NCBI GenBank assembly: GCA_964627935.1
Contig: CAZVLB010000001.1
Span: forward strand, 308,626-372,625
Direction: 5' to 3'
DNA length: 64,000 nt
Source: an uncultured Ignavibacteria bacterium
GTDB taxonomy: Bacteria > Zixibacteria > MSB-5A5 > JAABVY01
Shown here: positions 8,609-43,814 of the stretch, piece after piece
How positions within the stretch are numbered: position 1 is the first letter of the stretch
How the letters are laid out: each line of letters opens with the position of its first letter
Program-made: the position numbers and the translations under genes
The notes under the pieces: generated by a model
The model's database searches: none
What the model saw: only the letters and a program-made list of their open reading frames with translations
What the model was told of the DNA's origin: nothing

Positions 8609-10700
8609 ACAGGACGCAAAAATACTGGTGATCGATGATGAGCGTCGTATGGCGGAAAGCCTGCAGACGCTTTTAAGCGGCCTCGGTTATGAGGTGGAGA
8701 TTGCCTTTGATGGAAACCAGGGTGCCGAGAAAATCCGCAACAGCGAATATGACCTGATCATATCCGATATCAAGCTGCCCTATAAAAATGGCCTGGAGCT
8801 TCTCAACCTGGCCCGCGAAAAAGATCCTGAAGCGGTGGTAATTCTAATGACCGCCTATGCCTCACTGGAATCGGCGGTCGATGCGATCAGCCAGGGCGCC
8901 TATGATTATATTCTCAAGCCGGTTGAGTTTACTCATCTGAAGATCGCTGTCAGTCGTGCGCTTGATAAGCATTTCTCCAACAAATCCCGTCTTGAACTTT
9001 TGGAAGAGTTGCAGGAGAAGAATGAAACACTCAGCAAACGTCTGGCTGAGCTTAATGCACTATATAAAGCGGGCCATTCGCTTTCCACAACAATCGAAAC
9101 GCGCGAACTTCTGACCCAGATTATCGAGCTGGCCACCAAGGTTATCGGGGCACGAACCGGTTCAATTATGCTTCTGGATACAGAAAACAACTGCCTGAAT
9201 ATTTCGGCCTCGATCGGAATAAAAAAGGAAATCATAGAAAACACACAACTTCCACTTGGCTCATCTATTGCCGGTACAGTGGCACAGAGTGGAAAGCCTG
9301 TCATAATCGAGGATATCGAAACCGATTCTGATTTTAGACGCAAAGCCAAGAGTCAATATGCCACCAATTCGCTCATTTCGGTTCCCCTGATTGTTAAGGG
9401 CGAGGTGATCGGCGTTATCAACCTGACGGATAAAATCGAGGATGAAAAATTTACCGAAGAAGACCTTAAACTCCTGAATGCGCTGGCTTCGCAGGCCGCG
9501 ATAGCAATCGATGATGCCCGTCATTACGAGGAATCGACCAAAAAACTGCGAGAGTTTGTGGCCCTCTATGAAATCGCCTCGGAACTTCCCAACCTCGAGG
9601 ATTTCCCCCAGATGGCCCGGCTGGTGCATTTCCATATCAAGAACATCATGCCGGTCGAGATGACCTTGTGGCTATCCTATGAGCATAGGCCGGGTGTGCT
9701 GACATTCAACTTCTGGGATGGCTGGGGCAGAGAGAATTATTCCAAAGTCGAAAGCTCTGAAATTCCGCTGGTCAAGGATCAGATAAACAGCCCGACCCAG
9801 AGAGCCGAGGCGGTACTGAACTTCCTGGATGAAAAGCTATCACTCAACGGGCAAATCAAATCATTCCGCGCTGTTCCAATTTATACCAAGGGTCACCTGT
9901 ACGGTCTTTTCTGCATGGGTTCCCGTCAGGAGAAGGCCTTCATCACCGATCATGAATACCTGGCCTCGATTATTACCTCTCAGGCGGCATCATTGTATGA
10001 ACGCCAGCGGTCAATGCTCAATGCCACACGGCTCATGACCATGGGCAATATGATGTCTGAGATTTCACATGACCTGCGCAAGCCGTTGACCAATATCAAG
10101 GGTGGTCTGCAGGTGATGCGCGACCGCTGGCCGGAAAATGCCAAAAAGGATGGCTTCTTTGAGATGGCCGAGCAGGAACTTTCCCGTCTGTCTGAACTTG
10201 TCAAAGAGCTGGTTGACTTTTCGAATCCGACCCGTTATCAGACCGAGCGCAAAAAAATCGAGGATCCGATTAGCCGTGCGGTAAAACTGGTTGGACCTGA
10301 TCTGAAACGCTATAAAATAATGATGAAAACCGAATTTGAGGAAAACCTGCCGCTGGTTTCAATCAATTATAATCAGATTATCGAGACGCTTTTAAACATG
10401 TTTATCAATGCCATCGATGCCATGGATGAGGGCGGAACGCTGATCGTACGGGCATTACGCTATTTTGATGAAAAAGAGAAGCGTTCATATGTGCAGATCC
10501 AGATCGAGGATGACGGCAAGGGCATTCCGCCTGAGGACCAGGAACGTATTTTTGACCGCTATTTTACCACGAAGGATACAGGCACCGGGCTGGGACTGGC
10601 TGTGGTTGACCGCATTATAAAATCTCATAATGGCCGGATCGAGCTTCGTTCACGCCTGGGCAAGGGCACGACCTTCTATATCAACCTGCCGGTCAGCTAA
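8595..10700 (+). CDS. Hybrid signal protein: receiver domain - GAF - histidine kinase
   Basis: N-terminal REC (ILVIDDERRMAESL; DLIISDIKLP), GAF region, H-box HDLRKPLTNIKGG, HATPase_c (DTGTGLGLAVVDRIIKSHNG). Overlaps the upstream kinase gene by 14 nt, suggesting translational coupling. Confidence 0.85.
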   Translation: MQRSEQDAKILVIDDERRMAESLQTLLSGLGYEVEIAFDGNQGAEKIRNSEYDLIISDIKLPYKNGLELLNLAREKDPEAVVILMTAYASLESAVDAISQGAYDYILKPVEFTHLKIAVSRALDKHFSNKSRLELLEELQEKNETLSKRLAELNALYKAGHSLSTTIETRELLTQIIELATKVIGARTGSIMLLDTENNCLNISASIGIKKEIIENTQLPLGSSIAGTVAQSGKPVIIEDIETDSDFRRKAKSQYATNSLISVPLIVKGEVIGVINLTDKIEDEKFTEEDLKLLNALASQAAIAIDDARHYEESTKKLREFVALYEIASELPNLEDFPQMARLVHFHIKNIMPVEMTLWLSYEHRPGVLTFNFWDGWGRENYSKVESSEIPLVKDQINSPTQRAEAVLNFLDEKLSLNGQIKSFRAVPIYTKGHLYGLFCMGSRQEKAFITDHEYLASIITSQAASLYERQRSMLNATRLMTMGNMMSEISHDLRKPLTNIKGGLQVMRDRWPENAKKDGFFEMAEQELSRLSELVKELVDFSNPTRYQTERKKIEDPISRAVKLVGPDLKRYKIMMKTEFEENLPLVSINYNQIIETLLNMFINAIDAMDEGGTLIVRALRYFDEKEKRSYVQIQIEDDGKGIPPEDQERIFDRYFTTKDTGTGLGLAVVDRIIKSHNGRIELRSRLGKGTTFYINLPVS

Positions 10701-10824
10701 TTCTCTATATTTCTTTCATTTACGATTTTTTGTTTGACTAATGGGACAATATTGGTGATTTTGCAACTGATTGCTTAAAATAGGCATCAGATTGCTCAAC
10801 AAATTGCCGAATATACCGATATGA

Positions 10825-12297
10825 GTGGTAGAACAACATGGATGGCATAAAATGAAGAAAGACAAAGTAAAGCTGCTGATAATAGATGATGACCCCAAAG
10901 TGGGCTGGATTCTAACAGAAGGCCTTGAGGGACAATATGATATAAGTATCGCCCGGGATGGTGTGGAGGGCATTCAGATGGCCTCCAAGGAAAAGCCGGA
11001 ACTGGTGCTATTAGACATCAAAATGCCGGGCATGGATGGTATCGAGGTTTTGCGTAAGCTAAAAAAGGCCGATGTGCCCTCCGAGGTGGTGATGCTTTCC
11101 GGTCATGGCGAGACACAATATATTGTAGAGACGATCCAGCTCGGAGCCGCGGAATTCATCAATAAGCCCTTCGATGTAAAAGAGGTCGAGATTCATCTGC
11201 AAAAGGTCCTCGAACGCAGTCATCTTCAGCGCCGTCTCGATGAAGCTGTGGAGGAACTCCAGAAACGTAATCAGTTTGAGTCCTTCATTGGCGATTCGCC
11301 CAAGATGGTTGAGGTCAAAAACATCATTGAGCAGGTGGCCGACAGCGACCTGACTATGCTGATTCGCGGCGAATCGGGAACAGGCAAGGAAATCGTTGCG
11401 CGCACATTGCATAATCTTTCCGGCAGGGCCAATGTATCATTTACCAAGGTTAACTGCGCCGCGATCCCTCGTGACCTCCTGGAGGCCGAGCTTTTCGGCT
11501 ATGAGAAGGGCGCGTTCACCGGGGCGCATAAAACCAAGCCGGGAAGATTCGAGGTGGCCCATAAAGGCACGATTTTCCTGGATGAAATAGGCGATATGCA
11601 TATGGATCTGCAATCAAAGTTGTTGCAGGTGCTGGAACAGCAGGAATTCGTGCGCGTGGGTGGAATCCAGAATATCAAGGTCGATGTGCGCATAATCTGT
11701 GCCACCAACCGAAACCTGGAACAGGCCATTGCCGAACAGAGGTTCCGTGACGATCTGTTTTACAGGCTGAACGAAATCACCATTTTCATTCCTCCGCTCA
11801 GGGAACGCCGTGAGGATATTCCGCTCCTGGTGGATCATTTTCTCAAGAAATACAATGCCATGTATAAAAAGGATTTCGGTACAATCAGCCAGGAGACGGT
11901 TAACCGTTTGAGCGACGCGCCATGGCCCGGCAATGTTCGTCAGCTCGAAAATGTGATCAAGCAGATCGTGGTACGTGAGGATGAAAATATTGCCGAAAAT
12001 CTGCTCAAATCCGGCGCCGCGGTTGCGCCCCAGGCGGCGGCCAATAATCCCGCCCAGCAACAGGCACAGAATGCGGCATCAGCAGATACGCCCCAGCAGT
12101 CATCGAGTGAGGAGAAAGACTACGATCTGAAAAAGACTGTTTCCAAGGCTGTGGCTCGCGAGGAGAAGGCCCTGATTGCCGAGGTCTTAAACAAGGTCAA
12201 TTGGAACAGGCGCAAGGCCTCGGAGATACTGGGCGTGTCTTACCGTTCTCTGCTTTACAAAATAAAAGAGTATAAGATCAACGAGATGAACGGCTGA
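10825..12297 (+). CDS. Sigma-54-dependent transcriptional activator (NtrC family: REC - AAA+ - Fis-type HTH)
   Basis: REC (LLIIDDDP; LVLLDIKMPGMDG), sigma-54 interaction domain (GESGTGKE Walker A, GAFTGA loop, FRDDLFYRLN), C-terminal HTH. The true start may be the ATG at 10852 (MKKDKVK). Confidence 0.9.
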   Translation: MVEQHGWHKMKKDKVKLLIIDDDPKVGWILTEGLEGQYDISIARDGVEGIQMASKEKPELVLLDIKMPGMDGIEVLRKLKKADVPSEVVMLSGHGETQYIVETIQLGAAEFINKPFDVKEVEIHLQKVLERSHLQRRLDEAVEELQKRNQFESFIGDSPKMVEVKNIIEQVADSDLTMLIRGESGTGKEIVARTLHNLSGRANVSFTKVNCAAIPRDLLEAELFGYEKGAFTGAHKTKPGRFEVAHKGTIFLDEIGDMHMDLQSKLLQVLEQQEFVRVGGIQNIKVDVRIICATNRNLEQAIAEQRFRDDLFYRLNEITIFIPPLRERREDIPLLVDHFLKKYNAMYKKDFGTISQETVNRLSDAPWPGNVRQLENVIKQIVVREDENIAENLLKSGAAVAPQAAANNPAQQQAQNAASADTPQQSSSEEKDYDLKKTVSKAVAREEKALIAEVLNKVNWNRRKASEILGVSYRSLLYKIKEYKINEMNG

Positions 12298-23430: not shown

Positions 23431-24513
23431 TCAAAATCTTACCAGAAATCCGAGTGTTGCCGAGAAGCTGTCATATTCAAAAAGCTTATAGGTTGAATTA
23501 TTATTCTGATAATCTATTCTTAAAGATGGCTCCAGGTGTAAACCCGAACTCATCGGCATCGGCCAGCTGGCATTCAGGTACAGCCGCCTCTGGTCGTCAT
23601 TGCGATGCCTGACCCAATCGAGGGGCTCGAGGCTGGTCAGAAAACGTTTATCCCAGTAACCCGCTCCGCCTGTCAGGATTACGCTGGGTATTATATATGC
23701 CTTAAGATTCAAGATAACCGACCTGCCATCCCAGACCGAGGCCCATGGCGACAAAAAGCCGGTGGCATAACTGAGCACATACTGCCCTCCATAATCGGAG
23801 AACTCGGAATAATAAAATGTCAGGTTCATGCCGATTTTATTGCCCAGCGGACGGGAATAGCGGGGGGAGAAGTAAAACATCTTCAGGTCACCTTCGATAA
23901 AACCCAGCACCTGGGGCCAGGTGTAAATCGTTGATGTGTCGATGTAATTATAATTGGCGAATGAATAACCGACCTCGAGGTCAAAGCTGTTTTTGCCGAA
24001 CAGGGTGACATTGCTTCCCGCGAAAATCTCGAAGGCCTCTTTATCGGCTTCATCGGAGTTGACATATTTCGAACTGCTGTATTTGGCCCCAAAACGTATC
24101 TGCGCAGTACCCGTAAGATTAAATCCCATAGATGCCAGCATATCCAGGTCATTTGTGTTATAGACACTGAATGACTCTCGATATGAACGACTCTGATAGT
24201 TAAGATTGAGGTACAGCGCCAGGGGAAAATTATCGGGAGTCGGAATGGCGGTTATCGATCCGCCCGCTACAATATTGCCCAGGCCGACAATTTCATGATA
24301 ATAATTGTATTCGCTGTTCAGACTGATTTCCACCTGGGGAATTGGATAATAATTAAATCTGCCGGCCGAGCGTGAATAAGAATCGCTTATCCCCGATGAA
24401 TCGAGCAGAAGATTGTCGCTGAAGTTCTTGCTGAAATTGAATTCAAAACCGAAATCGGCATAGGCGCCTGATGCCATCAGGAGAATTAAAGCGGAAACAA
24501 GTAATGATTTCAT
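23431..24513 (-). CDS. Putative outer-membrane beta-barrel protein
   Basis: Signal peptide (LLVSALILLMASGAYA), alternating hydrophobic/aromatic-rich beta-strand pattern, C-terminal ...LGFLVRF ending in Phe. Confidence 0.6.
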   Translation of the reverse strand: MKSLLVSALILLMASGAYADFGFEFNFSKNFSDNLLLDSSGISDSYSRSAGRFNYYPIPQVEISLNSEYNYYHEIVGLGNIVAGGSITAIPTPDNFPLALYLNLNYQSRSYRESFSVYNTNDLDMLASMGFNLTGTAQIRFGAKYSSSKYVNSDEADKEAFEIFAGSNVTLFGKNSFDLEVGYSFANYNYIDTSTIYTWPQVLGFIEGDLKMFYFSPRYSRPLGNKIGMNLTFYYSEFSDYGGQYVLSYATGFLSPWASVWDGRSVILNLKAYIIPSVILTGGAGYWDKRFLTSLEPLDWVRHRNDDQRRLYLNASWPMPMSSGLHLEPSLRIDYQNNNSTYKLFEYDSFSATLGFLVRF

Positions 24514-25183: not shown

Positions 25184-25210
25184 ATTATGCAATAAAATAT
25201 GTTGCATAAT
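25184..25210 (+). promoter_or_regulatory. Perfect 9-bp inverted repeat, candidate operator upstream of the first dockerin-family gene
   Basis: ATTATGCAA-n9-TTGCATAAT in the AT-rich region ~85 bp upstream of the start at 25295. Confidence 0.3.
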
Positions 25211-25294
25211 TGCAAAATTTACTTATTTTATAATGATTACTGGCCAAAATGCCTTGCTTAAATGCTACTGCTAACATATAGGAGGAATAGCCTC

Positions 25295-26722
25295 ATGCGC
25301 ATCACGAGATGTAAACACATCCGGCATTCTGGCGCAATTCTATTTTCTCTCCTGTTTTTATTGATCTCAGCAGTTACACTGACAGCCTCGGACTTCGTGG
25401 CTGACAAGGACAAAGCCTGTCTCTATGAAGGCAATCTTGAAAGTGTGCAACCGGCTGATCATGAATTTCCGGAGGGTCTTAAGAATCGTGCGCCCTACCA
25501 GGGGGTATTGAAAATTTATGTCTGCGAAAAGGTCTCACGTTATAATGATTATCAGGGCGATCCCTACGAGCATGGATTTCTTGAGTTTGCCTATGATACG
25601 TCATTGAATCTCGAGTATCAGCAGACATTTAATCGCACGCTTACATGGGATCCCGCCAATCATGGCTGGAGCGGCGTTACCTCCGATAATATCGAGGTGA
25701 TCGCGGTACTTTTTAACCACATGGAAGGCCATCATGCTTATTCCGATCCGCCCAGCGGTGGTCATTTTCTGGCCTACTATGCTGATGCGACTGCAAAGGC
25801 CGAACCGGGTGGAACCGGCCATAATCAGGCCAGTGGCAGTTATACTCATACAGTATTTGTTGAAGAAGCAACATCGGGTACATGAGGATCCTGTCCAGCA
25901 ACGCGGGTCGCGTTGAGCACACTGTACGGGTTCGGAACCCACAATTTCCACTATGTTGCATTAGTTACCCAAAATTCATATGTTGGCCAGAGATTGAGCC
26001 AGCTAAATACCTACTATACTCCAACGACATACATCGATGCCGGCCAATCGCTTGTGGTCGGTGGCTACAGTAACCCCAGTTATTATGGCGGATTTATTGA
26101 AACCTCCGGCGAAAGACAGGTGCCCGAAATAGACCTTATCGTCAGTATGACCGCACAGGCAGGAAATACATATGAAATTGATATTTCGGCAACCCTGAAT
26201 ACTTTTATCAATGCCCCACCAAACAAGCCCTCGATCCCGGCCGGCGTGCAGCAGGGCACACTCATGACCGATTAAACTTACACAAGCTCGACAACTGATA
26301 TTGAAGGTGACCAGTTGTGGTACAAGTGGGACTGGGGTGACGGTCAGCAGAGTGACTGGCTGGGACCGTATGAATCCGGCGAGGAAGCTTCGGCTACTCA
26401 CAGCTGGGATGTGTCAAATACATACCAGATCAAGGTCAAGGCCAAAGATATCTATGATGCCGAAAGCTTATGGTCGACAGCATTCTTTGCTTATTTTGAA
26501 GGTATGCCATATATTTGCGGTGATGCAAACGGCGATGAGGGGATCAATGTCTCCGATGCTGTCTGGATCATCAACTATGTGTTCGTAACCGGAAGTCCTC
26601 CACCGGATCCATTGGAATCCGGCAATGTCAATTGTGACAGCGGAGTGAATGTCTCCGATGCTGTCTGGATCATCAATTACGTTTTCGTAACCGGCAGCCC
26701 CGGACCATGCGAATGCAAGTAA
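25295..26722 (+). pseudogene. Secreted PKD-domain / dockerin-like protein gene interrupted by two in-frame stop codons (TGA 25883-25885, TAA 26273-26275)
   Basis: ORFs 25262-25885, 25913-26275 and 26315-26722 are all in the same frame. SD GGAGG and signal peptide at the 5' end; a PKD domain (TYTSSTTDIEGDQLWYKWDWGDG...) straddles the TAA; the dockerin-like module is at the 3' end. Confidence 0.6.
26546..26694 (+). repeat. Intragenic tandem duplication of the dockerin-repeat coding segment (two ~47-bp near-identical copies, 102-bp period)
   Basis: AATGTCTCCGATGCTGTCTGGATCATCAACTATGTGTTCGTAACCGG (26546-26592) vs AATGTCTCCGATGCTGTCTGGATCATCAATTACGTTTTCGTAACCGG (26648-26694); related copies occur in the five other dockerin-family genes on both strands. 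Confidence 0.8.
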
Positions 26723-26740
26723 TATAGAATACCACTATTG

Positions 26741-26777
26741 ATCCGCGTCTGATATACTGGACGCGGATTTTTTTTTG
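26741..26777 (+). terminator. Rho-independent terminator after the interrupted dockerin gene
   Basis: ATCCGCGTC-tgatatactg-GACGCGGAT followed by a 9-T run. Confidence 0.8.
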
Positions 26778-26790
26778 GCTTTTCCACATA

Positions 26791-26815
26791 ATACAAGATG
26801 TAAAAAGTCTTGTAT
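26791..26815 (+). promoter_or_regulatory. 8-bp perfect inverted repeat between terminator and promoter upstream of the C25-like gene
   Basis: ATACAAGA-tgtaaaaag-TCTTGTAT immediately 5' of the putative promoter. Confidence 0.25.
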
Positions 26816-27026: not shown

Positions 27027-29531
27027 ATGCAATCGGACAGCTCATGCGCCAAAAAATCAAATGTGATTAGAATCACTATTCTTTCATTTTTTTCTGTACT
27101 GGTCTTGACTGCGGCCCTCTATGGCGGAGAGGTCACGGTCAGTTATGATTTCCAGGCTCCTGTTATTGAGAAGGTCATAATCGATGGCAAGATGTATGAT
27201 CGAGTGATCATGCCACAGACCTCGAATGGGGGAGAGACGGGCGAGCCCTCATTGCCATCCTCCGGAGCAAAAATTCTGATTCCGGCCAACTCCCGGGTTG
27301 AATCAATCCAGGTTACATTGGGTGATGAAATCTCCCTGGGCGATGGATTCTCAGTCGAGCCGTGTGGCTATCCGTTCAAGCTAAGCGCGCCCGAAGAGAT
27401 AGTTCCACCGCAACCGGATGCACAGATATATTCATCCGATGAGGCTTTTCCGGGAATAACGTATGAGCGAATAAATACTTATACATTGCGTGGCTATGAT
27501 ATCCTTATCCTTAAGCTTAATCCGGTACAGTATAAGCCGCTCAGCGGTGAACTTTCCTATTCTGATCAAATGCAGATTACTGTCAATACTGCAGATGCAG
27601 TTTACAGCAGGGAGACTTTTCGGGGAACGGCATCGGATGAACAGTCCGTGATCGATATCGTGGACAATCCCGAGACAGTTTTTTCGTATCGATCACTGCC
27701 GTCAAAAAATTATGGCGGCCGCGATCAATATGATCTGTTGATCATCACCAGCGAGGCGCTTAAACCGGCTTTCGATACGCTCAAGGCCTACCATGATTCC
27801 ACCGGAATGTCGACCTCGATACGAACCGAAGTCGATCTTGATATTTCCAGCGCATACCTGGTGAGAAAGTATATCAGGGATTTCTATAATGACTATGGAA
27901 TCGAGTATGTCCTGATAGGTGCGGATGATAATATCATCCCGGCTATGGATCTGTATGTGAAATCGTGGGACGGATATAATCCAGAAATTGAATATGAAAT
28001 GCCCGGCGATATCTACTTCGCCTGCCTTGATGATACATGGAATCATGACCGCGATGAGCACTGGGGAGAACCCAATGATGGGCCCGACGGCGGTGATGTC
28101 GATCTTATGGCCGATGTAAATGTCGGCCGTGCCTCTGTGGGCAATATCCCTGAGGCCAACAACTTTGTGCGCAAGACCATTGATTATGCCAACCTGTCCC
28201 GTTCGCAGCCGTATTTGCAGAATATCCTGCTGGTGGGTGAACATCTCGGTTTCGGGGGAGTCAGCGAATATGCCGGTAACTGCATGGATCAGCTCAAAAA
28301 CACATCATCATCAGACGGCTATACGACAACCGGGTTCGACACCAGCCTGTATGTTGTCGACCAGCTTTATGACCGCGACTGGACCGGAAACAACTGGCCC
28401 AAGGCTCAGGTTGTAAATCGCATAAATGAGGGCCGTCATTTTGTAAATCACCTCGGTCATGGCAGTCCCGGCTATGCCATGAAAATGTATAACAGCGATG
28501 TTGCCTATCTGACCAATGATGATTACTGCTTTGTATACTCGCAAACCTGCCTGGCGGGACATTTTGATAACACAGATTGTTTTGCCGAGTATATGACCAT
28601 AAAATATATGAATGGCGCATTTGCAATTGTCATGAATGCCCGTTACGGCTGGGGAATGTCAAACAGCACCGATGGTCCCTCGCAGAGATTCCACAGGCAG
28701 TTCCTGGATGCGATTTATGCCGAAAACACGCGCTCATTCAGCAAAGCCAACCATGATTCCAAACATGACAACCTGTATCGAATAAATCAGAGCTGTATGC
28801 GCTGGTGCTATTATGAGCTCAACCTTTTCGGCGATCCGACACTGGAGATGAATTATCACTGCGTCGATCCGGATGCCGATGGTTTTGCCACGCCCGGTTA
28901 TGAAAACAGCGAATGCCCGACCGACAACTGCCCCGGTTTTTATAACCCGGATCAGCTCGACAGCGACGGCGATGGTTTCGGCGACAGCTGTGACCTGTGC
29001 CAGGGATTCGATGATAATATAGACAGCGATGCCGATGGTGTCCCGGATGGCTGTGATATGTGCGCCGGTTATGACGATTATGCCGATGCGGATGAAGACA
29101 CTGTTCCGGATGGCTGCGATGTCTGCCCGGGTCATGATGACCTTCTGGACAGCGATGGCGATCTGCTGGCAGATGGATGTGATAACTGCCCCGATCATGC
29201 CAACGCCGAACAGCTCGATTATGACCAGGATGGGGTCGGAGATTTATGTGATAACTGTCCCGGCGACAGCAATCCGGATCAGGCCGATTCAGATTCTGAC
29301 GGTACCGGCGATGTCTGCGAATACATATGCGGTGACTGTAATGCCGATGGCGCGGTGAATGTCTCCGATGCGGTCGGTATTATCAATTACGTGTTCGTCT
29401 CAGGCAGTCCGGAACCGGATCCGATGGAATCCGGGGATGTTAATTGTGATGATAATGTTGATGTGTCCGATGGTGTTTACATCATCAACTTTATCTTTAC
29501 AAATGGGGATAACCCCTGCGACTGTGAATAG
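27027..29531 (+). CDS. Secreted clan-CD cysteine peptidase (gingipain/C25-like) with thrombospondin type 3 repeats and C-terminal dockerin-like module
   Basis: Signal peptide; His-Gly (VNHLGHGSPG) and Cys (YSQTCLAGHFD) dyad motifs in caspase-like order; ~8 TSP3-like repeats (DxDxDGxxDxCDxC); C-terminal CGDCNADGAVNVSDAVGIINYVF...PCDCE. Confidence 0.6.
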   Translation: MQSDSSCAKKSNVIRITILSFFSVLVLTAALYGGEVTVSYDFQAPVIEKVIIDGKMYDRVIMPQTSNGGETGEPSLPSSGAKILIPANSRVESIQVTLGDEISLGDGFSVEPCGYPFKLSAPEEIVPPQPDAQIYSSDEAFPGITYERINTYTLRGYDILILKLNPVQYKPLSGELSYSDQMQITVNTADAVYSRETFRGTASDEQSVIDIVDNPETVFSYRSLPSKNYGGRDQYDLLIITSEALKPAFDTLKAYHDSTGMSTSIRTEVDLDISSAYLVRKYIRDFYNDYGIEYVLIGADDNIIPAMDLYVKSWDGYNPEIEYEMPGDIYFACLDDTWNHDRDEHWGEPNDGPDGGDVDLMADVNVGRASVGNIPEANNFVRKTIDYANLSRSQPYLQNILLVGEHLGFGGVSEYAGNCMDQLKNTSSSDGYTTTGFDTSLYVVDQLYDRDWTGNNWPKAQVVNRINEGRHFVNHLGHGSPGYAMKMYNSDVAYLTNDDYCFVYSQTCLAGHFDNTDCFAEYMTIKYMNGAFAIVMNARYGWGMSNSTDGPSQRFHRQFLDAIYAENTRSFSKANHDSKHDNLYRINQSCMRWCYYELNLFGDPTLEMNYHCVDPDADGFATPGYENSECPTDNCPGFYNPDQLDSDGDGFGDSCDLCQGFDDNIDSDADGVPDGCDMCAGYDDYADADEDTVPDGCDVCPGHDDLLDSDGDLLADGCDNCPDHANAEQLDYDQDGVGDLCDNCPGDSNPDQADSDSDGTGDVCEYICGDCNADGAVNVSDAVGIINYVFVSGSPEPDPMESGDVNCDDNVDVSDGVYIINFIFTNGDNPCDCE

Positions 29532-29728: not shown

Positions 29729-31210
29729 ATGAAATTAAAATCAGCATCACTAATTATTTTCATGCTTCTAATGGCCGCTGTAACATTAAACGCTGCCAAC
29801 CGGGTGATAATGAATTCGATTCCGCAATCGCCGGTTCATAATACGGAAACTGTTCTTCAGATTGTGACTCAATGGGAAAACGACATCCTTCTGCAGGGCG
29901 TTTCCAATGGATTCGAGTTGACTGTCAGTGGAAATATCGTTTGTGAGATAGATTCCGGAAGTGCCGCAATCGTAGCAGGAAGCCGTCTTGACGGCGCAAT
30001 GGGCTGGAATTTCCGCTATTACCAGGCGCCGTTCGATTCAATAATCATGGGCGGTATCTATATTCCCGGCACATATGATGGTGTGCCCGCCGGAGCATTA
30101 GCTGATGCCTGGACAATGGACCTGAACCTGTCTTATCCCGGCGGAGATCCGGTAACAGATACAGGAACGGTATGTATTGACTCATTGTCGATCTCACCCT
30201 CGGGGCAGTGGATCTGGGATGACGGTACGGGAAACATCAATCCGACTTTTAATGACGGCACGGGTCCGTTGTGCATAGAGGTTGTCTGGCAGATTTGTAC
30301 CGATTCCGATAATGACGGCTATGGTGATCCCGGATTTCCCGAGAATGAATGCCCTGATGATAACTGTCCCGATGTCTTCAATCCGGATCAGCTTGATTCC
30401 GACGGTGATGGTGTCGGCGATTTGTGTGATATCTGCCCCAATCATGAGCTGGATGATTGCTGTAATCCCACAGTAGATAATAATGCACCTCAGATTACAT
30501 CACCATCCAGTATAACGGTTCTTCCGGTTGTGGATGAGGTCAATTATATTGCTGAATGTGATGATCCCGATTGTTCGGGCGGTGAATTGATTTTCAGTGT
30601 CGAGAATGTGCCCGCATGGCTGATTCTCAATGGCGATACGATAAGCGGCACGGCATCATGCGGCGAAGAGGATGCATTGCTGAGACTGATCGTTTCCGAC
30701 GGCACATTGGCGGATACGCTGATAGTCACGGTTGATGTCGATAATAGCAACCAGGCACCACAGATTACAGATCCGGCCGATACGATCAAAGTCTATAACG
30801 GTACTGAATTTGTGTATTATCCGACCATCGATGATCCTGATGATGCTACCCATACGATTAATTATCTGGCATTGCCCGACTGGGCCTCGGTCGTAAATGA
30901 CAGTGTTAAGGCCACCGTACCGTTGGTCAATAATATTCAGGACCTGACAGTGGCTGTCTCCGATGTTTGCGGCGCGGACACATTGAGCTTCCCGGTCTGG
31001 GCCTATATCTGCGGTGATGGTAATAATGACGGCGATGTAAATGTCAGTGATGCTGTCTGGATCATCAACTATGTTTTTGTCAGTGGTGATGCTCCGCTGC
31101 CGATTGAGGCCGGAGATGCTAACTGCGACGGCGATGTTAATGTCAGCGACGCGGTCTGGATCATTAACTTTGTATTCGTCAGCGGCCCGGCCCCCTGCGA
31201 GTGCCCATAA
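29729..31210 (+). CDS. Secreted protein with TSP3 repeats, Ig/cadherin-like domains and C-terminal dockerin-like module
   Basis: Signal peptide (LIIFMLLMAAVTLNAA), TSP3 repeats (DSDNDGYGD...CPDVFNPDQLDSDGDGVGDLCDIC), C-terminal [23 protein letters not shown]...PCECP. Confidence 0.65.
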   Translation: MKLKSASLIIFMLLMAAVTLNAANRVIMNSIPQSPVHNTETVLQIVTQWENDILLQGVSNGFELTVSGNIVCEIDSGSAAIVAGSRLDGAMGWNFRYYQAPFDSIIMGGIYIPGTYDGVPAGALADAWTMDLNLSYPGGDPVTDTGTVCIDSLSISPSGQWIWDDGTGNINPTFNDGTGPLCIEVVWQICTDSDNDGYGDPGFPENECPDDNCPDVFNPDQLDSDGDGVGDLCDICPNHELDDCCNPTVDNNAPQITSPSSITVLPVVDEVNYIAECDDPDCSGGELIFSVENVPAWLILNGDTISGTASCGEEDALLRLIVSDGTLADTLIVTVDVDNSNQAPQITDPADTIKVYNGTEFVYYPTIDDPDDATHTINYLALPDWASVVNDSVKATVPLVNNIQDLTVAVSDVCGADTLSFPVWAYICGDGNNDGDVNVSDAVWIINYVFVSGDAPLPIEAGDANCDGDVNVSDAVWIINFVFVSGPAPCECP

Positions 31211-31569: not shown

Positions 31570-33222
31570 ATGAAAATCAAATATTTTTCCGTACCGGTGA
31601 TAATTTGTATGCTTTTTATGGGTGAAACACTTCTCGCCCAGCAAAGCACTACCGGCCCGGTACCGCCCGAAGGTGTTGATCTGGGCTCGACATTGAAGTC
31701 AAGGTCGCAGGTGACGATTGAAGGGGTACCCCGTTATATCTGGCATCACGGCTGTGGGCCGACTGCGGCCGGCATGGTGATTGGCTATTGGGATGGACAT
31801 GGCTATGGTGACCTTGTTGATGGTGAGGCGATGGTCCAGCTCGGAAATGTCAAGACAATGATTGCAAGCGATAACGGCCTGGCGGTCTGCAATGATGTCT
31901 TCGCCGATCATTACCGCGATTATTCATGTCCGCGTGATGACACGGGGCCGCTTCTGGCCGATAAATCTGAGACAGGTGGAGCGCATGAAAATGAATGCCT
32001 GGCTGATTTTATGAAAACATCATGGAGCTCAATCGGCAATCGTTATGGCTGGAGCTATGACAGTGATTTGCAGATTTCACTGGATCAATATGTGCCGTAT
32101 GTAAATCCGGCCTATAGCGTGGAGACCGAGAATATTGCCTGCTGGGATGCTGAATTCAGTTGGCAAAGATACAAGGCCGAAATCGATTCCGGGCGGCCGG
32201 TGGTACTTCTGGTTGACACTGACAGCGACGGTTCTACCGATCATTTTGTGACAGCGATCGGCTATGATGACTCAAGCCTGGAATATGGAATATATAATAC
32301 ATGGGACACACAGCTTCACTGGCACAGCTGGGCCGATATTTCCCCGGGCCAGCCCTGGGGAGTTTACAGCATGACGACAATGAAGTGGACCGGTATATGT
32401 GTTGATTCAGATGGCGATAACTGGGGCGACCCCGGTCATCCGGAAAACATATGCGATACCGATAACTGCCCGGATGTCTACAATCCAGCCCAGGATGATA
32501 CAGATGGCGATGGGCTGGGTGATGCCTGTGATCCTGATATCGATGATGATGGATTCCTTAATGAAGATGACAACTGTCCCTATGCTCACAATATTGATCA
32601 GTCCGACACTGACGGCGACAACATAGGTGATGTCTGCGATAATTGCCCGATAGTTTCAAATCCGATGCAGTGGGATGAAGATTCCGATGGCGTCGGAGAT
32701 GCCTGCGACGGCCAGTTGCATATGCAATGCTATGATGTGCCCGATGGAATAATAGGGGAGCCGTATTCATATCAATTCCAGGCTGTGGGTGGTGTGACAC
32801 CCTATAACTGGGAAAAAGTCTGGGGGCAGTTCCCCTATGGTTTGAGTTTCGACAATCAAACAGGGATACTGCAGGGCATACCGACATGGGAGTCGGATTA
32901 TAGTTTCCGTATGCGTGTTACCGATTCCGATTCACCGATGAATGAAGATACCATGCTGATTACGATAGTCATCAGCCAACCACCGCAACCGGATTATATC
33001 TGCGGGGATGCAAATTCCGATGACGACGTCAATATCAGCGATGCCGTATTTGTCATAAATTATATTTTCGTTGCCGGTACTACTCCCGATCCGATTGACT
33101 CGGCGGATACGAATTGTGATGATGGTGTCAATATCAGTGATGCAGTCTGGATTATAAATTTCGTTTTTGCCGGCGGCAATGCGCCCTGTGATACGAATGA
33201 TGATGGTCAGCCCGACTGCTGA
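31570..33222 (+). CDS. Secreted papain-like cysteine peptidase (C39/C10-like) with TSP3 repeats, He_PIG-type Ig domain and C-terminal dockerin-like module
   Basis: Signal peptide; putative catalytic Cys in [17 protein letters not shown]; TSP3 repeats; putative Ig motif ([29 protein letters not shown]); dockerin-like C-terminus. Confidence 0.55.
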
Positions 33223-34230: not shown

Positions 34231-35277
34231 ATGGTAGGAATTGTTGGATATGGTGCCAAGATACCCCGGCATCGTATTAAAGTGGAAGAAATTGCCAAAG
34301 TGTGGGGTGCTGATGCCGAGAGTTACAAGCGCGGGCTTCAGCTGACAGAGAAATCGGTCCCCGCACCGGATGTCGACTGTGTCACACTTTCAGTGGAGTC
34401 GACACGCTATGCATTGAAGCGGGCCGGGATTCAGGGCAGTCAGATTGGCGCTCTGTATATCGGCTCCGAATCCCATCCCTATGCGGTCAAGCCCTCCGGC
34501 ACGATCTGTGCCGAGGCGATCGGTGCCACACCGCATTGTCATAATGCGGATTATGAATTTGCCTGCAAGGCCGGTTCCGAGGCGATGTTTGTCGCCATGG
34601 GCCTGGTCAAATCTGGCTTTGTCGAATATGCGGCCGGAATCGGCGCAGATACATCGCAGGGAGCTCCCGGCGACGCCCTGGAATATTCCGCGGCGGCTGG
34701 CGCTGCATCATTTATCATGGGCAGCGACAACATCATTGCCGAGCTTTTATTCCAGCACTCGTGGATGAGTGATACCCCTGACTTCTGGCGCCGCGAGCAT
34801 GAACATTATCCCCAGCATGGCGGAAGGTTCACTGGCGAACCGGCCTATTTCACGACTATCACAGGTTGCGCCAAGGCTCTTCTGGAAAAATCCGGAATGA
34901 AGCCCGAGGATTTCGCCTTTGCGGTATTTCATCAGCCCAACGGCAAATTCCCGATGAGGATCGGCAAGATGCTGGGCTTCGAGCGCGAACAGCTGGAAAC
35001 CGGATGGCTCGTGCCGGTTCTCGGTAACACCTATTCCGGCGCATCTCCGATCGGCCTGACGGCTATCCTGGATATCGCCAAGCCGGGTGATAAGATTTTC
35101 ATGTGCTCGTATGGCTCCGGCGCGGGATCTGACGGTTTCATATTCCAGGTCACCGACCGAATCAAAGAGGTCCAGGACCTGGCTCCCAAGACCCGTCCCC
35201 AGCTGGATGAAAACAAAATCTATGTCGACTATGGCACGTATGCCAAGTTCCGCAAGAAAATTTTGAAAAACGCTTAG
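34231..35277 (+). CDS. Hydroxymethylglutaryl-CoA synthase, archaeal-type (short ~350 aa form)
   Basis: N-terminus MVGIVGYGAKIPRHRIKVEEIAKVWG is the hallmark of archaeal-type HMGCS; thiolase-fold condensing enzyme with active-site Cys; followed by thiolase and OB-fold partner genes. Confidence 0.8.
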   Translation: MVGIVGYGAKIPRHRIKVEEIAKVWGADAESYKRGLQLTEKSVPAPDVDCVTLSVESTRYALKRAGIQGSQIGALYIGSESHPYAVKPSGTICAEAIGATPHCHNADYEFACKAGSEAMFVAMGLVKSGFVEYAAGIGADTSQGAPGDALEYSAAAGAASFIMGSDNIIAELLFQHSWMSDTPDFWRREHEHYPQHGGRFTGEPAYFTTITGCAKALLEKSGMKPEDFAFAVFHQPNGKFPMRIGKMLGFEREQLETGWLVPVLGNTYSGASPIGLTAILDIAKPGDKIFMCSYGSGAGSDGFIFQVTDRIKEVQDLAPKTRPQLDENKIYVDYGTYAKFRKKILKNA

Positions 35278-35289
35278 GAGTTAATAGAA

Positions 35290-36450
35290 ATGAGAGATGT
35301 AGCTATTATAGGCGTTGGCATGACCAAGTGGGGAGAGATTTGGGAAAAGTCCCTCCGCCAGCTTTTTGTTGATGTCGCCATCGAGGCGATTGCCGATGCC
35401 GGTATAGAAGATCTGGATGGTATGTATATTGGCAGCATGTCTCCCGGTCTGTTTGTCGGTCAGGAACATATTGGTTCCCTGATGGCCGACTACATGGGCC
35501 GCAGACATCTTCCCGCCGCCAGAGTTGAATCAGCCTGTGCCTCGGGCGGACTGGCAGTTAAAACCGCTTTTCTGGATGTGGCCTCCGGGTATTCCAATAT
35601 CGTCCTGGCGGGCGGTGTTGAAAAGATGACCGATGTTTCCGGTGACGGCGCCACATATGCGCTGGCAACCGCCGCCGACCAGGAATACGAAGTGTTCCAT
35701 GGCGCGACATTCCCGGGCCTGTATGCCATGATGGCCCGCCGTCATATGCATGAATACGGCACAACACGTCGCCAGCTTTCATCAGTGGCAGTCAAGAATC
35801 ATGAGAACGGCTCCAAGAATCCCTATGCCCAGTATCCTTTCAAGGTCACTCATGAGGGCGTGGAGAATTCGACTATGGTCGCCGATCCGTTGACAATCCT
35901 GGATTGTTCGCCGATCACAGACGGCGCCGCGGCGGTGATTCTGGCCGATATGGAAACGGCCAAGAGAGTCTGCAAGGATAAGCCGCTGGTTAAGATCATC
36001 GGCGTGGGCCATGCCACAGATTCGATCGCATTGCATGACCGCAAATCACTTTCCGGCCTGTCCGGTACTCGTGTGGCGGGCGAAAGAGCCTACAAGATGG
36101 CCGGCAAGACACCTGAGGATATCAATGTTGCCGAGTTCCATGACTGCTTCACGATTGCCGAGATCATGGTTTTGGAAGAACTTGGTTTTTGCGAGAAGGG
36201 CAAAGGCGGAGAATACACCGAATCCTGCAACACGCATATTGGCGGCAAGATTCCGGTCAACACCTCCGGCGGCCTGAAATCCAAGGGTCACCCGGTCGGC
36301 GCCACAGGCGTTGCCCAGGTGCTCGAAATCACCAAACAGCTTCGCGGCGAATGCGGTGATCGCCAGGTGGAAGGCGCCAAAGTCGGCCTGACACAGAATA
36401 TGGGCGGTACCGGTGGTTCAACTGTTGTGCATATACTGGAGGTGGTCTAA
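35290..36450 (+). CDS. Acetyl-CoA C-acetyltransferase, archaeal-type thiolase (partner of HMGCS)
   Basis: [17 protein letters not shown]-terminus, thiolase-fold motifs ([11 protein letters not shown]; GHPVGATG); stop overlaps the next start (TAATG). Confidence 0.8.
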
Positions 36451-36845
36451 TGTTTCCGGCAAGAATATGGAGAGAAAGGCCGCAGAGATATCGTCTCGAG
36501 GCGGTCAAGAATAAAGCCACCGGCGAGGTCTATTTCCCGCCCCGCGTGGTAGACAGAGACGGCAAGAAGTTCGAAGCCGAAAATTATATCCTTCCCAGCG
36601 AAGGAAAGATTCATACCTATACAATCATCGAGGTTCCTCCCAGCCAGTTCAAAGATGAGGCTCCCTATGTTGTCGGTATAGTCGAGCTTTCCGATGGTAC
36701 TAAGCTGACCTGCCAGATCACCGATCTGGCCGACAAAAGCTGGCTTGGCATCGGCAAGAAAGTTCGCCTGGAATTCAGAAGAGTCCAGACCGACAGCCAT
36801 CATGGAGTATTGTCTTACGGCTATAAAGCCGTGCCGGCGGAGTAA
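36450..36845 (+). CDS. OB-fold (DUF35-like) acyl-CoA-associated protein, scaffold partner of thiolase/HMGCS
   Basis: 131-aa protein in the conserved third position of thiolase-HMGCS-DUF35 operons; OB-fold-like pattern; the Zn-ribbon cysteines appear to be absent. Confidence 0.6.
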
Positions 36846-36847
36846 CG

Positions 36848-38458
36848 ATGTATTCACGAATTGAATCGAAGATCGACACATCCTCGGCGGACTTCAAAAA
36901 AAATCGGGAGGAAAACCTAAAACTCAGAGATGGGTTTTTAGAGAAACTGGAAGTCATCAAAAAGGGCGGACCGGATTACATGGTCGAGCGCCACAAGAAA
37001 CGTGGCAAGATGACCGCGCGTGAACGTCTGGCCGCTCTCTTCGACAAGAATACGCCGTTTCTGGAATTATCGCCCCTGGCGGCATATGACATGTACGAAA
37101 ATGAAGCCCCCTCGGCCGGGATGATCACCGGTATCGGTGTTGTCCGCGGCCGTGAGGTGCTGGTTATCGCCAATGATGCCACAGTCAAGGGCGGAACATA
37201 TTTTCCCATGACAATCAAGAAGCACGTGCGTGCCCAGCAGGTTGCCATGGAAAATCACCTGCCCTGTGTCTACCTGGTGGATTCCGGAGGAATCTTCCTG
37301 CCCCATCAAAGCGGGACATTCCCGGACCAGGGACATTTCGGACGGATTTTCTACAATCAGTCTGTCATGTCGGCCATGAGCATTCCACAGATTTCGGTGG
37401 TCATGGGTTCATGCACCGCCGGTGGTGCCTATGTGCCCGCTTTGTGCGATGAGACTGTCATTGTCAAGAAGCAGGGTACGATCTTTATCGGCGGCCCGCC
37501 TCTGGTGAAAGCCGCAACCGGTGAATCGGTAACCGATGAGGAATTGGGTGGCGCGGATGTACACTGCCGTATTTCAGGCGTGGCCGATCATTATGCGCAA
37601 AACGACCAGCATGCGATTGAAATCACACGTTCGGTTGTGGAATCGCTGGATCATCCGGCCAAATTCAAACTCAATCGTATCGAACCTGAGGATCCTTATT
37701 ATGATCCTGAGGAACTCTATGGCGTAGTGCCTGCCAACCTGCGCAAGCCCTATGATATTCGCGAAGCTATAGCACGAATTGTTGACGGCTCGAGATTCCA
37801 GGAATTCAAAGAATTATACGGCCAGACACTGGTGACCGGCTTCGCGCGAATTATGGGCTATCCGGTTGGCATAATCGGCAATAATGGTGTGCTTTTCTCG
37901 GAGAGTTCTGTCAAGGGAGCACATTTTATCGAGCTCTGCACCGAACGCCAGATTCCGCTTATCTTCCTGCAGAATATCAGCGGATTTATTGTCGGCAAGC
38001 AGTATGAGCATGGCGGCATTGCCAAAGACGGCGCCAAGATGGTGCATGCTGTGGCCAATGCCAAAGTGCCCAAGTTCACCGTTGTAATCGGTGGTTCATA
38101 CGGCGCCGGTAACTATGCCATGTGCGGACGTGGCTATTTCCCGCGTCTGATGTGGATGTGGCCGAATGCCAAGATCTGTGTCATGGGTGGTGAACAGGCT
38201 GCCGATGTGCTCTGGACCGTCAAGAAACGTCAGCTCGAGAAAAAGGGCGTGAAAATCACCGGGGATATGGAGCGGGAATTCAAGAAGCCGACACTGGAAC
38301 GCTACGAATTCGAATCGACGCCATATTATTCCGGGGCGAGGCTCTGGGATGACGGCATGATCGATCCGGTCGAGACGCGCAGGATGCTGGCGCTGGGTAT
38401 TTCCATGTCGCTCAATGCCGATGTGCCCAAGACCAAGTACGGTGTATTCAGGATGTAG
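36848..38458 (+). CDS. Acyl-CoA carboxylase carboxyltransferase subunit (methylcrotonyl-CoA carboxylase beta-like)
   Basis: Carboxyltransferase motifs ([22 protein letters not shown]; [11 protein letters not shown]; [13 protein letters not shown]); 536 aa as in MCC beta. Confidence 0.8.
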
Positions 38459-38475
38459 CCGGGAAGGATTATCCG

Positions 38476-39261
38476 ATGGCTGACTATGAAACCATTAAAT
38501 ACAATAAGGACGGCAATGTTGCACGGATAACGTTCTGCCGTCCCAAAATCCATAACGCCTTCAATTCGACTATGATCCGTGAGCTTTATGATCTCTTCAG
38601 CAAGATGAGAGATGATAATGACATCCGGGTTGTGGTCATAACCGGCGAGGGCAAGTCCTATTGCGCCGGGGCCGATTTGAACTGGATGCGCGATGTGGTC
38701 AGGTATTCCTATGAACAGAATCTCAAGGAATCGCTGGAACTGGCCATGCTCTTCCGCACAATCTATGAATTCCCGCGCCCGGTGATCGGGCGAATCAATG
38801 GTGCCGCTATCGGTGGCGGGACGGGATTCGTGGCTGTAACGGATATTGCAATTGCGGCCGAATCGGCAGTGTTTTCATTTTCGGAGGTCAAGATCGGCGT
38901 GGTGCCGGCCTGTATTTCGCCCTATGTGGTCAAACGCGTGGGCGAGGGCCGTGCCCGTGAATTCTTCCTGACCGGCGAACGGCTGACCGCGCAACGCGCA
39001 TTGGATTCGGGCCTGGTCAATCGTATGGTGCCGGATGATAAGCTGGATGACGAGGTAGAGGCCATGGTCAAACAGCTGTTATCTTCCGGGCCGGATGCCC
39101 TGGCTATGTGCAAGGAACTTTTGGCAACCATAGCCGACCAGAATATCGGCGAATTCGAAAAATATACCGCCGAGGTGATCGCGACATTGCGCAAATCAGA
39201 TGAGGGACAGGAGGGTATGGACGCTTTTCTGAACAAACGCAAACCGAATTGGGTGGAGTAG
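38476..39261 (+). CDS. Enoyl-CoA hydratase (crotonase family; probable methylglutaconyl-CoA hydratase)
   Basis: Crotonase fold motifs (VVVITGEGKSYCAGADL; GRINGAAIGGG); position between MCC subunits. Confidence 0.75.
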   Translation: MADYETIKYNKDGNVARITFCRPKIHNAFNSTMIRELYDLFSKMRDDNDIRVVVITGEGKSYCAGADLNWMRDVVRYSYEQNLKESLELAMLFRTIYEFPRPVIGRINGAAIGGGTGFVAVTDIAIAAESAVFSFSEVKIGVVPACISPYVVKRVGEGRAREFFLTGERLTAQRALDSGLVNRMVPDDKLDDEVEAMVKQLLSSGPDALAMCKELLATIADQNIGEFEKYTAEVIATLRKSDEGQEGMDAFLNKRKPNWVE

Positions 39262-39271
39262 ATAATCAAAC

Positions 39272-40774
39272 ATGTTTAAAAAAATACTGGTCGCCAACCG
39301 CGGAGAAATCGCCTGCCGGATCATCCAGGCGGCCTCTGAAATGAATATTCCCACGCTGGCGGTTTATTCTGAAGCGGATGAGAAAGCTCTGCATGTGCTC
39401 AGGGCCGACGAAGCCGCGCTCCTGGGACCGCCGTCGCCGCTTGAAAGCTACCTGAATATTGATCGCTTGATTGAAGTCGCGAAGGAATTTGGCTCCGATG
39501 CGATTCATCCCGGCTACGGTTTCCTGGCCGAAAATCATAATTTTGCCAGGCAGTGCGAAGATGAAGGGATTACCTTTATCGGCTCGCATTCGGAATCGAT
39601 TCGCGCAATGGGCAACAAGGTCGAGGCGCGTCAGATGATGATCAACTCCGGTGTGCCCGTGATACCGGGCATGGAGGGTTCAGCCGAGGATGTCGAGCTG
39701 TTCAAGAAAGAGGCCGAACGGGTTGGCTATCCGGTGCTTCTGAAAGCCGCCGCAGGTGGCGGTGGTAAAGGCATGCGGGTTGTCCATGATCCGGATAATA
39801 TCGAGGATGCCCTGCATGGCGCCATGCGCGAGGCCAAATCGGCTTTTGGCGATGATTCGGTCTATCTCGAAAAATATATTCAGGAACCGCGTCATATCGA
39901 GTTCCAGGTATTCGGCGATAAGCACGGAAACTATATTCATCTGTTCGAACGCGAGTGTTCGATCCAGCGCCGTCACCAGAAAATAATCGAGGAAACACCC
40001 TCGGTGGCGGTTGATGATCTGTTGCGTACCAAGATGGGTGAGGCGGCTGTGCAGGTTGCCCGCGCATGTGAGTATACCAATGCCGGTACGGTCGAATTTT
40101 TGCTGGATAAGGACAAGAATTTTTATTTCCTGGAAATGAACACGCGCATACAGGTTGAACACCCGATCACTGAAATGGTAGTCGGTGTGGACCTGGTCAA
40201 GGAACAGATTCGTGTCGCGTCGGGCGAACCATTGTCTATCGGGCAGGGTGATGTCGAGCAGCGCGGGCATGCAATCGAATGCAGGGTATATGCCGAGGAT
40301 GCCGAGAATAAATTCCTGCCGTCATCGGGCAAACTGCTCTTCCATCGTGAACCGCGCGGGCCATTTATCCGCGTCGATACGGGCGTCTATTCCGGGGTTG
40401 ATGTAACCGTTTACTATGATCCGATTCTATCCAAGCTGGTTGTCTGGGGTGAAAACAGGGCCGATGCGATCGAGCGAATGAAGAAGGCCCTGGATAATTA
40501 TATCGTGTTGGGAGTCAAGACATCCATCCATTATCTTAAAGCGATACTTGAACACAGGGAATTCATCGAGGGCCGCACCTACACTGATTTCATCGATACC
40601 AATATGAAAGATTGGGTCCCGCCGGAATTATCTGATGATAACAAAAAGATAGTTCTCCTGGCGGCCGCAGTGAACGAGATGAACAGGAAGCCGGAATACG
40701 CCGAGGGCGGTCCGCAGGAGATGCCATCGCCATGGCAAACCATTGGCAAATGGGAAATTGGGATGGGAGGTTAA
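39272..40774 (+). CDS. Biotin carboxylase subunit of acyl-CoA carboxylase (no fused BCCP)
   Basis: MFKKILVANRGEIACRIIQAA N-terminus, ATP-grasp motifs (GYPVLLKAAAGGGGKGMRVV; EMNTRIQVEHPITE). Confidence 0.9.
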   Translation: MFKKILVANRGEIACRIIQAASEMNIPTLAVYSEADEKALHVLRADEAALLGPPSPLESYLNIDRLIEVAKEFGSDAIHPGYGFLAENHNFARQCEDEGITFIGSHSESIRAMGNKVEARQMMINSGVPVIPGMEGSAEDVELFKKEAERVGYPVLLKAAAGGGGKGMRVVHDPDNIEDALHGAMREAKSAFGDDSVYLEKYIQEPRHIEFQVFGDKHGNYIHLFERECSIQRRHQKIIEETPSVAVDDLLRTKMGEAAVQVARACEYTNAGTVEFLLDKDKNFYFLEMNTRIQVEHPITEMVVGVDLVKEQIRVASGEPLSIGQGDVEQRGHAIECRVYAEDAENKFLPSSGKLLFHREPRGPFIRVDTGVYSGVDVTVYYDPILSKLVVWGENRADAIERMKKALDNYIVLGVKTSIHYLKAILEHREFIEGRTYTDFIDTNMKDWVPPELSDDNKKIVLLAAAVNEMNRKPEYAEGGPQEMPSPWQTIGKWEIGMGG

Positions 40775-40775
40775 A

Positions 40776-41285
40776 GTGGATTATGAACTTGTTTTAGATG
40801 GTCAGGAATACTTCGTTTCGATTTCCAAAGGCAAGAACGGCTATACAGCCAAAATCGGCGATGAGGAATTTTCGTTCGAGCAAATAGATTTTGAAACCGC
40901 CTGCTTAAAGTTAAATGTTAACGGTGTGCCCAAAACCGTATATGTGGCAGGTGAAAATGAAAAGTGCTACGTTCATGTCGACGGGCTCGTGCATACGCTC
41001 GAAATCCCCTCGGAGGAATCATCGGCAGGCGCCGGATCATCGGATTTAATTGTCGATGGCAAACAACTGGTGGTCGCGCCTATGCCGGGCAAGATTGTCG
41101 ATATTCCGGTCAAGGTCGGGCAGGCGGTCAAGGAAAAAGATATTCTCTGCGTGGTCGAGGCGATGAAGATGGAAAACGAAATCCGCTGCATGGTCAAGGG
41201 TGTGGTCAAGGAAATCGGCTACAAGGCCGGTGACCTGGTCGGCACCGAGGAAACGATCCTGATAGTCGAGGCGGCCGAGGAATAG
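40776..41285 (+). CDS. Biotin carboxyl carrier protein (biotinyl domain)
   Basis: Biotin attachment motif CVVEAMKMENEI; start set at GTG 40776 with SD GGGAGG 6 nt upstream (the ORF track begins at 40743). Confidence 0.8.
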   Translation: MDYELVLDGQEYFVSISKGKNGYTAKIGDEEFSFEQIDFETACLKLNVNGVPKTVYVAGENEKCYVHVDGLVHTLEIPSEESSAGAGSSDLIVDGKQLVVAPMPGKIVDIPVKVGQAVKEKDILCVVEAMKMENEIRCMVKGVVKEIGYKAGDLVGTEETILIVEAAEE

Positions 41286-41319
41286 ACTTTTTCTGCATAT
41301 GTGGCCCTTCAAAATTTTC

Positions 41320-42922: not shown

Positions 42923-42946
42923 GACAACTTACGGGAGGTTTTCGAG

Positions 42947-43801: not shown

Positions 43802-43814
43802 ATGAGGAGTTTAT

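Follow-up and report, generated by a model that had tools for sequence, protein, structure and literature searches.

Within the window, by which we mean the whole 64,000-nt (64-kb) stretch of DNA analyzed here, a gene for a dockerin-bearing protein carries a TAA codon where its reading frame would otherwise run on, and the question is whether this stop is real, how it arose and what it has done to the gene. The TAA is in frame, at 26273-26275 on the + strand, and falls, as read in the sequence, within the first strand of a PKD domain, 980 bases downstream of the start of the gene. Translation of 25262-26725 in one frame gives ...GTLMTD*TYTSSTTDIEGDQLWYKWDWGDG..., identical to the translation quoted in the preliminary description.

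Architecture of the interrupted gene

The whole coding frame, 25295-26722, is interrupted twice, by a TGA at 25883-25885 (codon 197) and by the TAA at 26273-26275 (codon 327), and encodes, in order, a signal peptide, a beta-sandwich, a thioredoxin-like UxxC domain, a PKD domain and a dockerin. The features are as follows.

25280-25285, + strand: Shine-Dalgarno-like AGGAGG, 9 nt 5' of the ATG at 25295, read in the sequence
25295-26722, + strand: whole interrupted coding frame, 475 codons, from ATG 25295 to the natural stop TAA 26720-26722
25295-25390, + strand: predicted signal peptide MRITRCKHIRHSGAILFSLLFLLISAVTLTAS, a charged N-terminus followed by a hydrophobic core; the orthologs have a similar N-terminus
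25496-25822, + strand: N-terminal beta-sandwich-like domain, YxGxLRxYVVEPxSRW...GFLxFA, from alignments and strands 47-155 of the AlphaFold (AF2) model of homolog P0001; boundaries approximate
25853-26110, + strand: thioredoxin-like domain with the active-site motif U-G-S-C (codons 197-200)
25883-25885, + strand: in-frame TGA, candidate selenocysteine codon, aligned with the first Cys of CxxC
25899-25915, + strand: SECIS-like hairpin CAACGCG-GGT-CGCGTTG of 7 bp, beginning 13 nt past the TGA (+17 to +33)
26210-26482, + strand: PKD domain interrupted by the TAA (Pfam PF00801, 4xed_A)
26273-26275, + strand: TAA nonsense codon where Tyr is conserved, from ortholog codons and the homolog alignment
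26315-26722, + strand: TTG-initiated remnant ORF of 135 aa, most of the PKD domain plus the dockerin, without a signal peptide
26519-26683, + strand: type I dockerin with two Ca-binding repeats
26740-26779, + strand: intrinsic terminator, a 12-bp stem plus T run, 3' of the natural stop 26720-26722

The domain cut by the TAA is a genuine PKD domain, as had been proposed from the sequence, and the cut falls in its first strand. With X written at the stop, the Pfam PKD family (PF00801) matches residues 318-392 across the TAA at 24.9 bits (cutoff 23.5), and Dockerin_1 (PF00404) matches residues 409-463 at 29 bits (cutoff 22.9), the duplicated Ca-binding segment of the dockerin being readable directly in the sequence. 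When Tyr was restored at the stop, the domain matched the solved PKD structure 4xed_A with E=5e-24, and 4XED has Tyr at the same position. 4XED is the PKD domain of an M14-like peptidase of Thermoplasmatales archaeon SCGC AB-540-F20, where it accompanies a different catalytic domain; unlike 4XED, the PKD domain of the window gene is broken by the TAA. The N-terminal beta-sandwich-like domain (25496-25822) matches no Pfam family. In the AF2 model of the Cys homolog P0001 (mean pLDDT 86), a signal helix (the N-terminal helix, residues 6-30) is followed by the beta-sandwich, the redox module, a beta-hairpin, the PKD domain and the dockerin, and the redox module is arranged as beta-alpha-beta-alpha-beta-beta-alpha with CxxC at a helix N-terminus. 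Judged from this model, the genes would form a thioredoxin-fold UxxC/CxxC family.

Protein records (NCBI and/or Logan) split the gene at 25295-26722 into three entries of 207/196, 120 and 135 aa. In a protein search, the joined translation retrieved full-length homologs, 450-470 aa long, with a coverage of 88-100%, while its closest relatives, at 60-63% identity, were fragments of 274-277 aa that begin just past the TGA position. Since homology runs through the TAA, the two sides are not two ORFs adjacent by chance. This corrects the gene model: the three separately recorded ORFs belong to one gene, and the first of its breaks would be a selenocysteine codon rather than a stop.

At least five further dockerin-bearing secreted proteins are encoded in the window, at 27027-29531, 29729-31210, 31570-33222, 51714-53969 (−) and 54022-56607 (−). 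In this order, they are a C25 peptidase, one protein with no other Pfam match, a multi-domain protein with thrombospondin type 3 repeat, C39-like peptidase and He_PIG domains, and two M1 peptidases. Most of them end, past the dockerin, in a short Cys-containing tail (CDCE, CECP, PCPI), which in the interrupted gene reads CECK. The two dockerin repeats of the interrupted gene (26546-26575 and 26648-26677) share an identical 30-nt run of DNA, and a 26-nt run is common to its dockerin and that of the gene at 29729-31210 (31049-31074), which hints at some sequence homogenisation among the dockerins. Elsewhere in the window, an acyl-CoA metabolism cluster at 34231-46105, unrelated to the TAA, encodes thiolases, a carboxyl transferase, an enoyl-CoA hydratase, a biotin carboxylase, a 3-hydroxyacyl-CoA dehydrogenase and two acyl-CoA dehydrogenases, and the gene at 1946-3514, which joins a response regulator receiver with a PglZ domain, has histidine kinases and a sigma-54 activator as neighbors (605-12297).

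The in-frame TGA as a candidate selenocysteine codon

In the homolog alignment, the TGA falls in the column of the leading Cys of a conserved CxxC motif (...TATWCPxCP...). Among 73 loci from species-representative genomes plus the orthologous loci fetched before, the codon at this position is TGA in 17 distinct genes and TGT or TGC in 57 homologs, and homology is continuous across it. The 17 TGA genes come only from assemblies labelled Zixibacteria, Ignavibacteria or "bacterium"; orthologous Zixibacteria loci show the same in-frame TGA, as in ...CTWDG*PGCPS... and ...CTWDG*PSCPT..., and in many Zixibacteria assemblies it splits the gene into two called ORFs.

The hairpin that follows the TGA distinguishes the two classes of genes. 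Across 12 genes, 92.9% of the alignment cells of the hairpin are paired, compared with 23-49% when its 3' arm was slid by 1-3 columns, and changes on both sides of the stem (compensatory changes) are found in four of the seven pairs; in four further genes, the hairpin is displaced by 1 base. The 17 TGA genes average 6.24 of 7 pairs with a local folding energy of −8.1 kcal/mol, whereas the 57 Cys genes average 4.07 of 7 pairs and −2.7 kcal/mol. In the interrupted gene, all seven pairs of 25899-25915 are intact. Folded alone, the hairpin showed no gain over shuffled sequence (z = −0.04), and Rfam gave no match at gathering thresholds in the whole 64-kb window and none at E<=10 in 25700-26400. 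ARAGORN found zero tRNA genes in the 64-kb window, hence neither a tRNA-Sec nor a suppressor tRNA, and a Pfam scan of 37 long ORFs placed no selA, selB or selD within it.

Because a conserved TGA occupies the position of the CxxC Cys and is followed by a covarying hairpin specific to the TGA genes, TGA 25883 almost certainly specifies selenocysteine, with the hairpin as its bacterial SECIS-type element; judged by comparison of sequences, such a conserved in-frame TGA with a TGA-specific covarying hairpin is the standard signature of a bacterial selenoprotein gene with a SECIS. The preliminary description had counted TGA among the ordinary stops, a reading that would fail for this gene, where the in-frame TGA 25883 appears as a conserved selenocysteine codon.

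The arrangement resembles that of the known thioredoxin-like selenoproteins, in which selenocysteine likewise replaces the first Cys of CxxC, Cys homologs are common, and the hairpin stands directly 3' of the UGA within the coding sequence. The difference is that the window gene adds a signal peptide, an N-terminal beta-sandwich, a PKD domain and a dockerin, which would make its product extracellular and tethered. In the fdhF-type SECIS of E. coli, the stem-loop starts no more than about 15 nt past the UGA, and its apical loop, G-rich and of the GGU(C) type, is about 20 nt from it. The hairpin at 25899-25915 shares this spacing and the GGU(C)-type loop; its stem sequence is unrelated to that of the E. 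coli fdhF SECIS, and no curated covariance model matched it.

Four same-frame ORF pairs separated by one stop were also inspected in the window (3515/3949, 23431/24532, 54022/56629 and 58711/59200), and all look like separate neighboring genes. The pair 23431-24513 (−)/24532-25029 (−), in the same frame with a TGA and 18 nt between them, is a coincidence and not a second selenocysteine site, because the downstream gene has its own signal peptide and the two are out of frame in the orthologous locus L001.

Origin of the TAA codon and its consequences

The orthologs share a syntenic order of a 361-aa gene (−), a 145-aa gene (−), the counterpart of the interrupted gene and a C25 peptidase-dockerin gene. 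At the TAA column, all close syntenic orthologs (L001-L007, L010, L011 and L044) have TAC or TAT, and Tyr is found in 16 of 21 aligned homologs; none of the orthologs or homologs examined has a stop codon there. Since the orthologs carry Tyr as TAC or TAT, the TAA is one transversion away from the ancestral codon. The preliminary description had held that a sense codon in related genomes would expose an assembly error. The relatives do have a sense codon, Tyr, but they belong to different species, which makes the TAA derived and is not proof of a wrong assembly. No intact allele turned up for this species: the best protein database match reached 63% identity and the best genome-contig match 58%, a search of the JGI metagenomes for the exact DNA, with the third codon base left as N, had 0 matches, and a protein-guided metagenome scan returned at most 56% identity, covering the PKD part only.

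Downstream of the TAA, the gene has not decayed. All 14 of the nearly invariant family residues 3' of codon 327 are kept, and the PKD and dockerin segments have 66-74% identity with those of the orthologs, while the intact ortholog groups L001/L005 and L010/L044 share 64-74% identity in the same segments. This undecayed sequence indicates that the lesion is young; as far as sequence can tell, an absence of decay would be equally expected if the PKD-dockerin part were still translated. It agrees with the recent inactivation that the preliminary description had considered for a "recently inactivated paralog", but the word paralog does not fit: neither the N-terminal nor the thioredoxin-like part recurs in the window, and the locus lies in synteny with orthologs that are single-copy.

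We therefore consider it probable that the TAA is a real, ordinary and recent nonsense mutation. The intact gene would have encoded a secreted protein whose type I dockerin would hold it at the cell surface by way of a cohesin-bearing partner, with TGA 25883 presumably read as selenocysteine with the aid of the hairpin at 25899-25915, as comparison among the homologs suggests. An evolutionarily recent point mutation of the Tyr codon at 26273 (TAC or TAT to TAA) would then end translation at residue 326, past the complete redox module, and detach the PKD domain and dockerin from the exported part. The gene would now be a young pseudogene, or else a truncated allele from which an untethered redox domain is still exported. 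As natural homologs without the PKD domain or without the dockerin exist (P0022, P0017-P0028), the shortened protein may likewise be able to fold and be exported. The TTG-initiated ORF at 26315-26722, predicted earlier as a remnant of 135 aa, is present and is also an NCBI protein record, with AAGGTG 5 nt upstream of its TTG; as it has no signal peptide, any product would stay in the cytoplasm as a PKD-dockerin fragment. The locus thus shares with the ordinary nonsense pseudogenes of metagenome-assembled genomes a one-base premature stop in a gene that is intact in relatives, and differs from them in that the affected gene would also be a selenoprotein gene and so appears as three ORFs.

A different reading of the same truncation is that it was selected, the loss of the PKD domain and dockerin freeing the redox module as a secreted or periplasmic enzyme. 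The stop does stand exactly in the linker/first strand past the complete redox module, and homologs without a dockerin, without a PKD domain or consisting of the core only (archaeal loci) are found in nature. Nevertheless, no other lineage has arrived at such an architecture by a stop at this site, and 447 nt of coding sequence that is intact but no longer of use remain together with the strong terminator, as expected of a very young lesion. Moreover, it is in its N-terminal and thioredoxin-like parts that the gene has diverged most, with 51-60% identity to the orthologs as against 75-82% between the ortholog groups, which could reflect a relaxed constraint on the whole gene. Selection for the truncated form is hence unlikely.

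A sequencing, consensus or assembly error, with the gene intact apart from its selenocysteine codon, would be suggested by the single base that parts TAA from the Tyr codons TAC/TAT and by the integrity of the rest of the gene. However, the NCBI contig carries both the TAA and the TGA, and so do three Logan contigs (SRR7048224, SRR7048225 and SRR7048227), which are 99.98-100% identical to the window, those of SRR7048224 and SRR7048227 being 100% identical; the corresponding loci L008, L009 and L097 have the identical TAA. The same base is thus given by a second pipeline in separate runs, with at least about 190 nt on each side, and neither a homopolymer nor a repeat surrounds the site. As the three Logan runs are probably the source data of the NCBI assembly, this agreement excludes an assembler artefact, not an allele specific to the sample, and intact alleles may coexist with the TAA as a minority. 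The presence of the TAA in all four contigs makes an assembly error unlikely, and the error proposed as one possible cause in the preliminary description, whether of assembly or of sequencing, finds very little room.

The sole mismatch of the SRR7048225 contig lies at 25217 (A in the window, G in the contig), in intergenic DNA 5' of the gene, and the TAA is in both haplotypes. All three Logan contigs end at 26463-26466, approximately 190 nt past the TAA and inside the KAKDIYDAES motif, where no 31-mer repeated within the window was found. These shared ends may stem from a paralogous PKD sequence elsewhere or from a strain variant just downstream, so heterogeneity just downstream of the TAA, near the contig ends, is possible.

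It is about as improbable as an error that the TAA is leaky or recoded, through a near-cognate tRNA-Tyr or a suppressor tRNA, and that the full-length, dockerin-anchored selenoprotein is still made. Such readthrough would fit the PKD domain and dockerin, which keep all of their hallmark residues and are as conserved as in the intact orthologs, and the gene would already rely on one recoding event, from UGA to selenocysteine. But the undecayed sequence is explained equally by a recent mutation, and a stop at this position in none of the orthologs, with Tyr in all of the close ones, argues against a conserved programmed event. Furthermore, TAA ends 12 of the 38 long ORFs in the window (the others end in TGA, 17, or TAG, 9), the window has no tRNA gene, and no RNA family matches around the TAA. 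A narrower version, with two recoding events in one gene, would read the UGA of codon 197 as selenocysteine and the UAA of codon 327 through at a low level, most simply as Tyr by a near-cognate tRNA-Tyr. The undecayed downstream sequence is compatible with it, and if it were true the cell would make a free redox module plus a little dockerin-anchored protein; we give it slightly less credence still.

Finally, a phase-variable locus or an altered genetic code has nothing in its favor beyond the in-frame stops and is hardly conceivable, since Tandem Repeats Finder returned 0 rows for 25200-26800 and the TAA site has no homopolymer or simple repeat, the stop arose by substitution and not by a frameshift, each of the three stop codons ends long ORFs of the window, and the TGA of the gene would be accounted for by its gene-specific hairpin; of the two, phase variation had been offered earlier as a possible cause and is not borne out, whereas the earlier exclusion of code reassignment holds.

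Relatives of the family and its significance

In single Zixibacteria genomes, the family also occurs in tandem arrays of 2-4 paralogs in which TGA (selenocysteine) and TGC/TGT (Cys) copies are mixed. The copies are at the following positions of their loci.

L017: 3385 and 4945
L025: 2025 and 3385
L026: 1510, 3370, 4862 and 6363
L027: 3361 and 4958

Thermoplasmatota archaea widely share the beta-sandwich with the thioredoxin-like core, in every case in its Cys form (L012-L016, L018, L023 and L029-L082). The family is thus common to bacteria and archaea, and among the loci examined the selenocysteine forms occur on the bacterial side only.

Among described families, the closest likeness is a faint one, to the Omp28 family (PF11551) and the Omp28-related selenoprotein (NF045500), at the active-site stretch ...EE.T.TWC..CP.... 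Omp28 relatives and the window family are both exported, and a selenocysteine form is known for the former. Pfam Omp28 matched five of 34 homologs with a best E-value of 0.0037, and in NCBIfam the homologs P0017 and P0014 scored 14-15 bits against NF045500, whose cutoff is 200 bits; at about 15 bits, these scores lie far below the cutoffs of 150-200 bits. The window protein itself has no match to NF045500 and so does not belong to it; its only NCBIfam match at E<=1 is an irrelevant one of 15.7 bits. On these sequence scores, the two would at most be distantly related, not members of one family. The review of the compared selenoproteins does not mention Zixibacteria, PKD, dockerin or Omp28, and our literature search returned nothing on Zixibacteria selenoproteins or dockerins, on Omp28 selenoproteins or on the runs SRR7048224, SRR7048225 and SRR7048227. 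Because of these negative searches, we lean towards regarding the genes as an uncatalogued family of extracellular, dockerin-tethered selenoproteins of Zixibacteria, with Cys-only relatives in Thermoplasmatota.

The TAA itself matters little, being just another recent nonsense mutation of a metagenome-assembled genome. A dockerin-tethered extracellular selenoprotein beside dockerin-tagged peptidases, on the other hand, would be an unusual setting for selenium redox chemistry, and the Sec/Cys family of secreted thioredoxin-fold proteins with PKD and dockerin domains would offer a concrete target for selenoproteome annotation.
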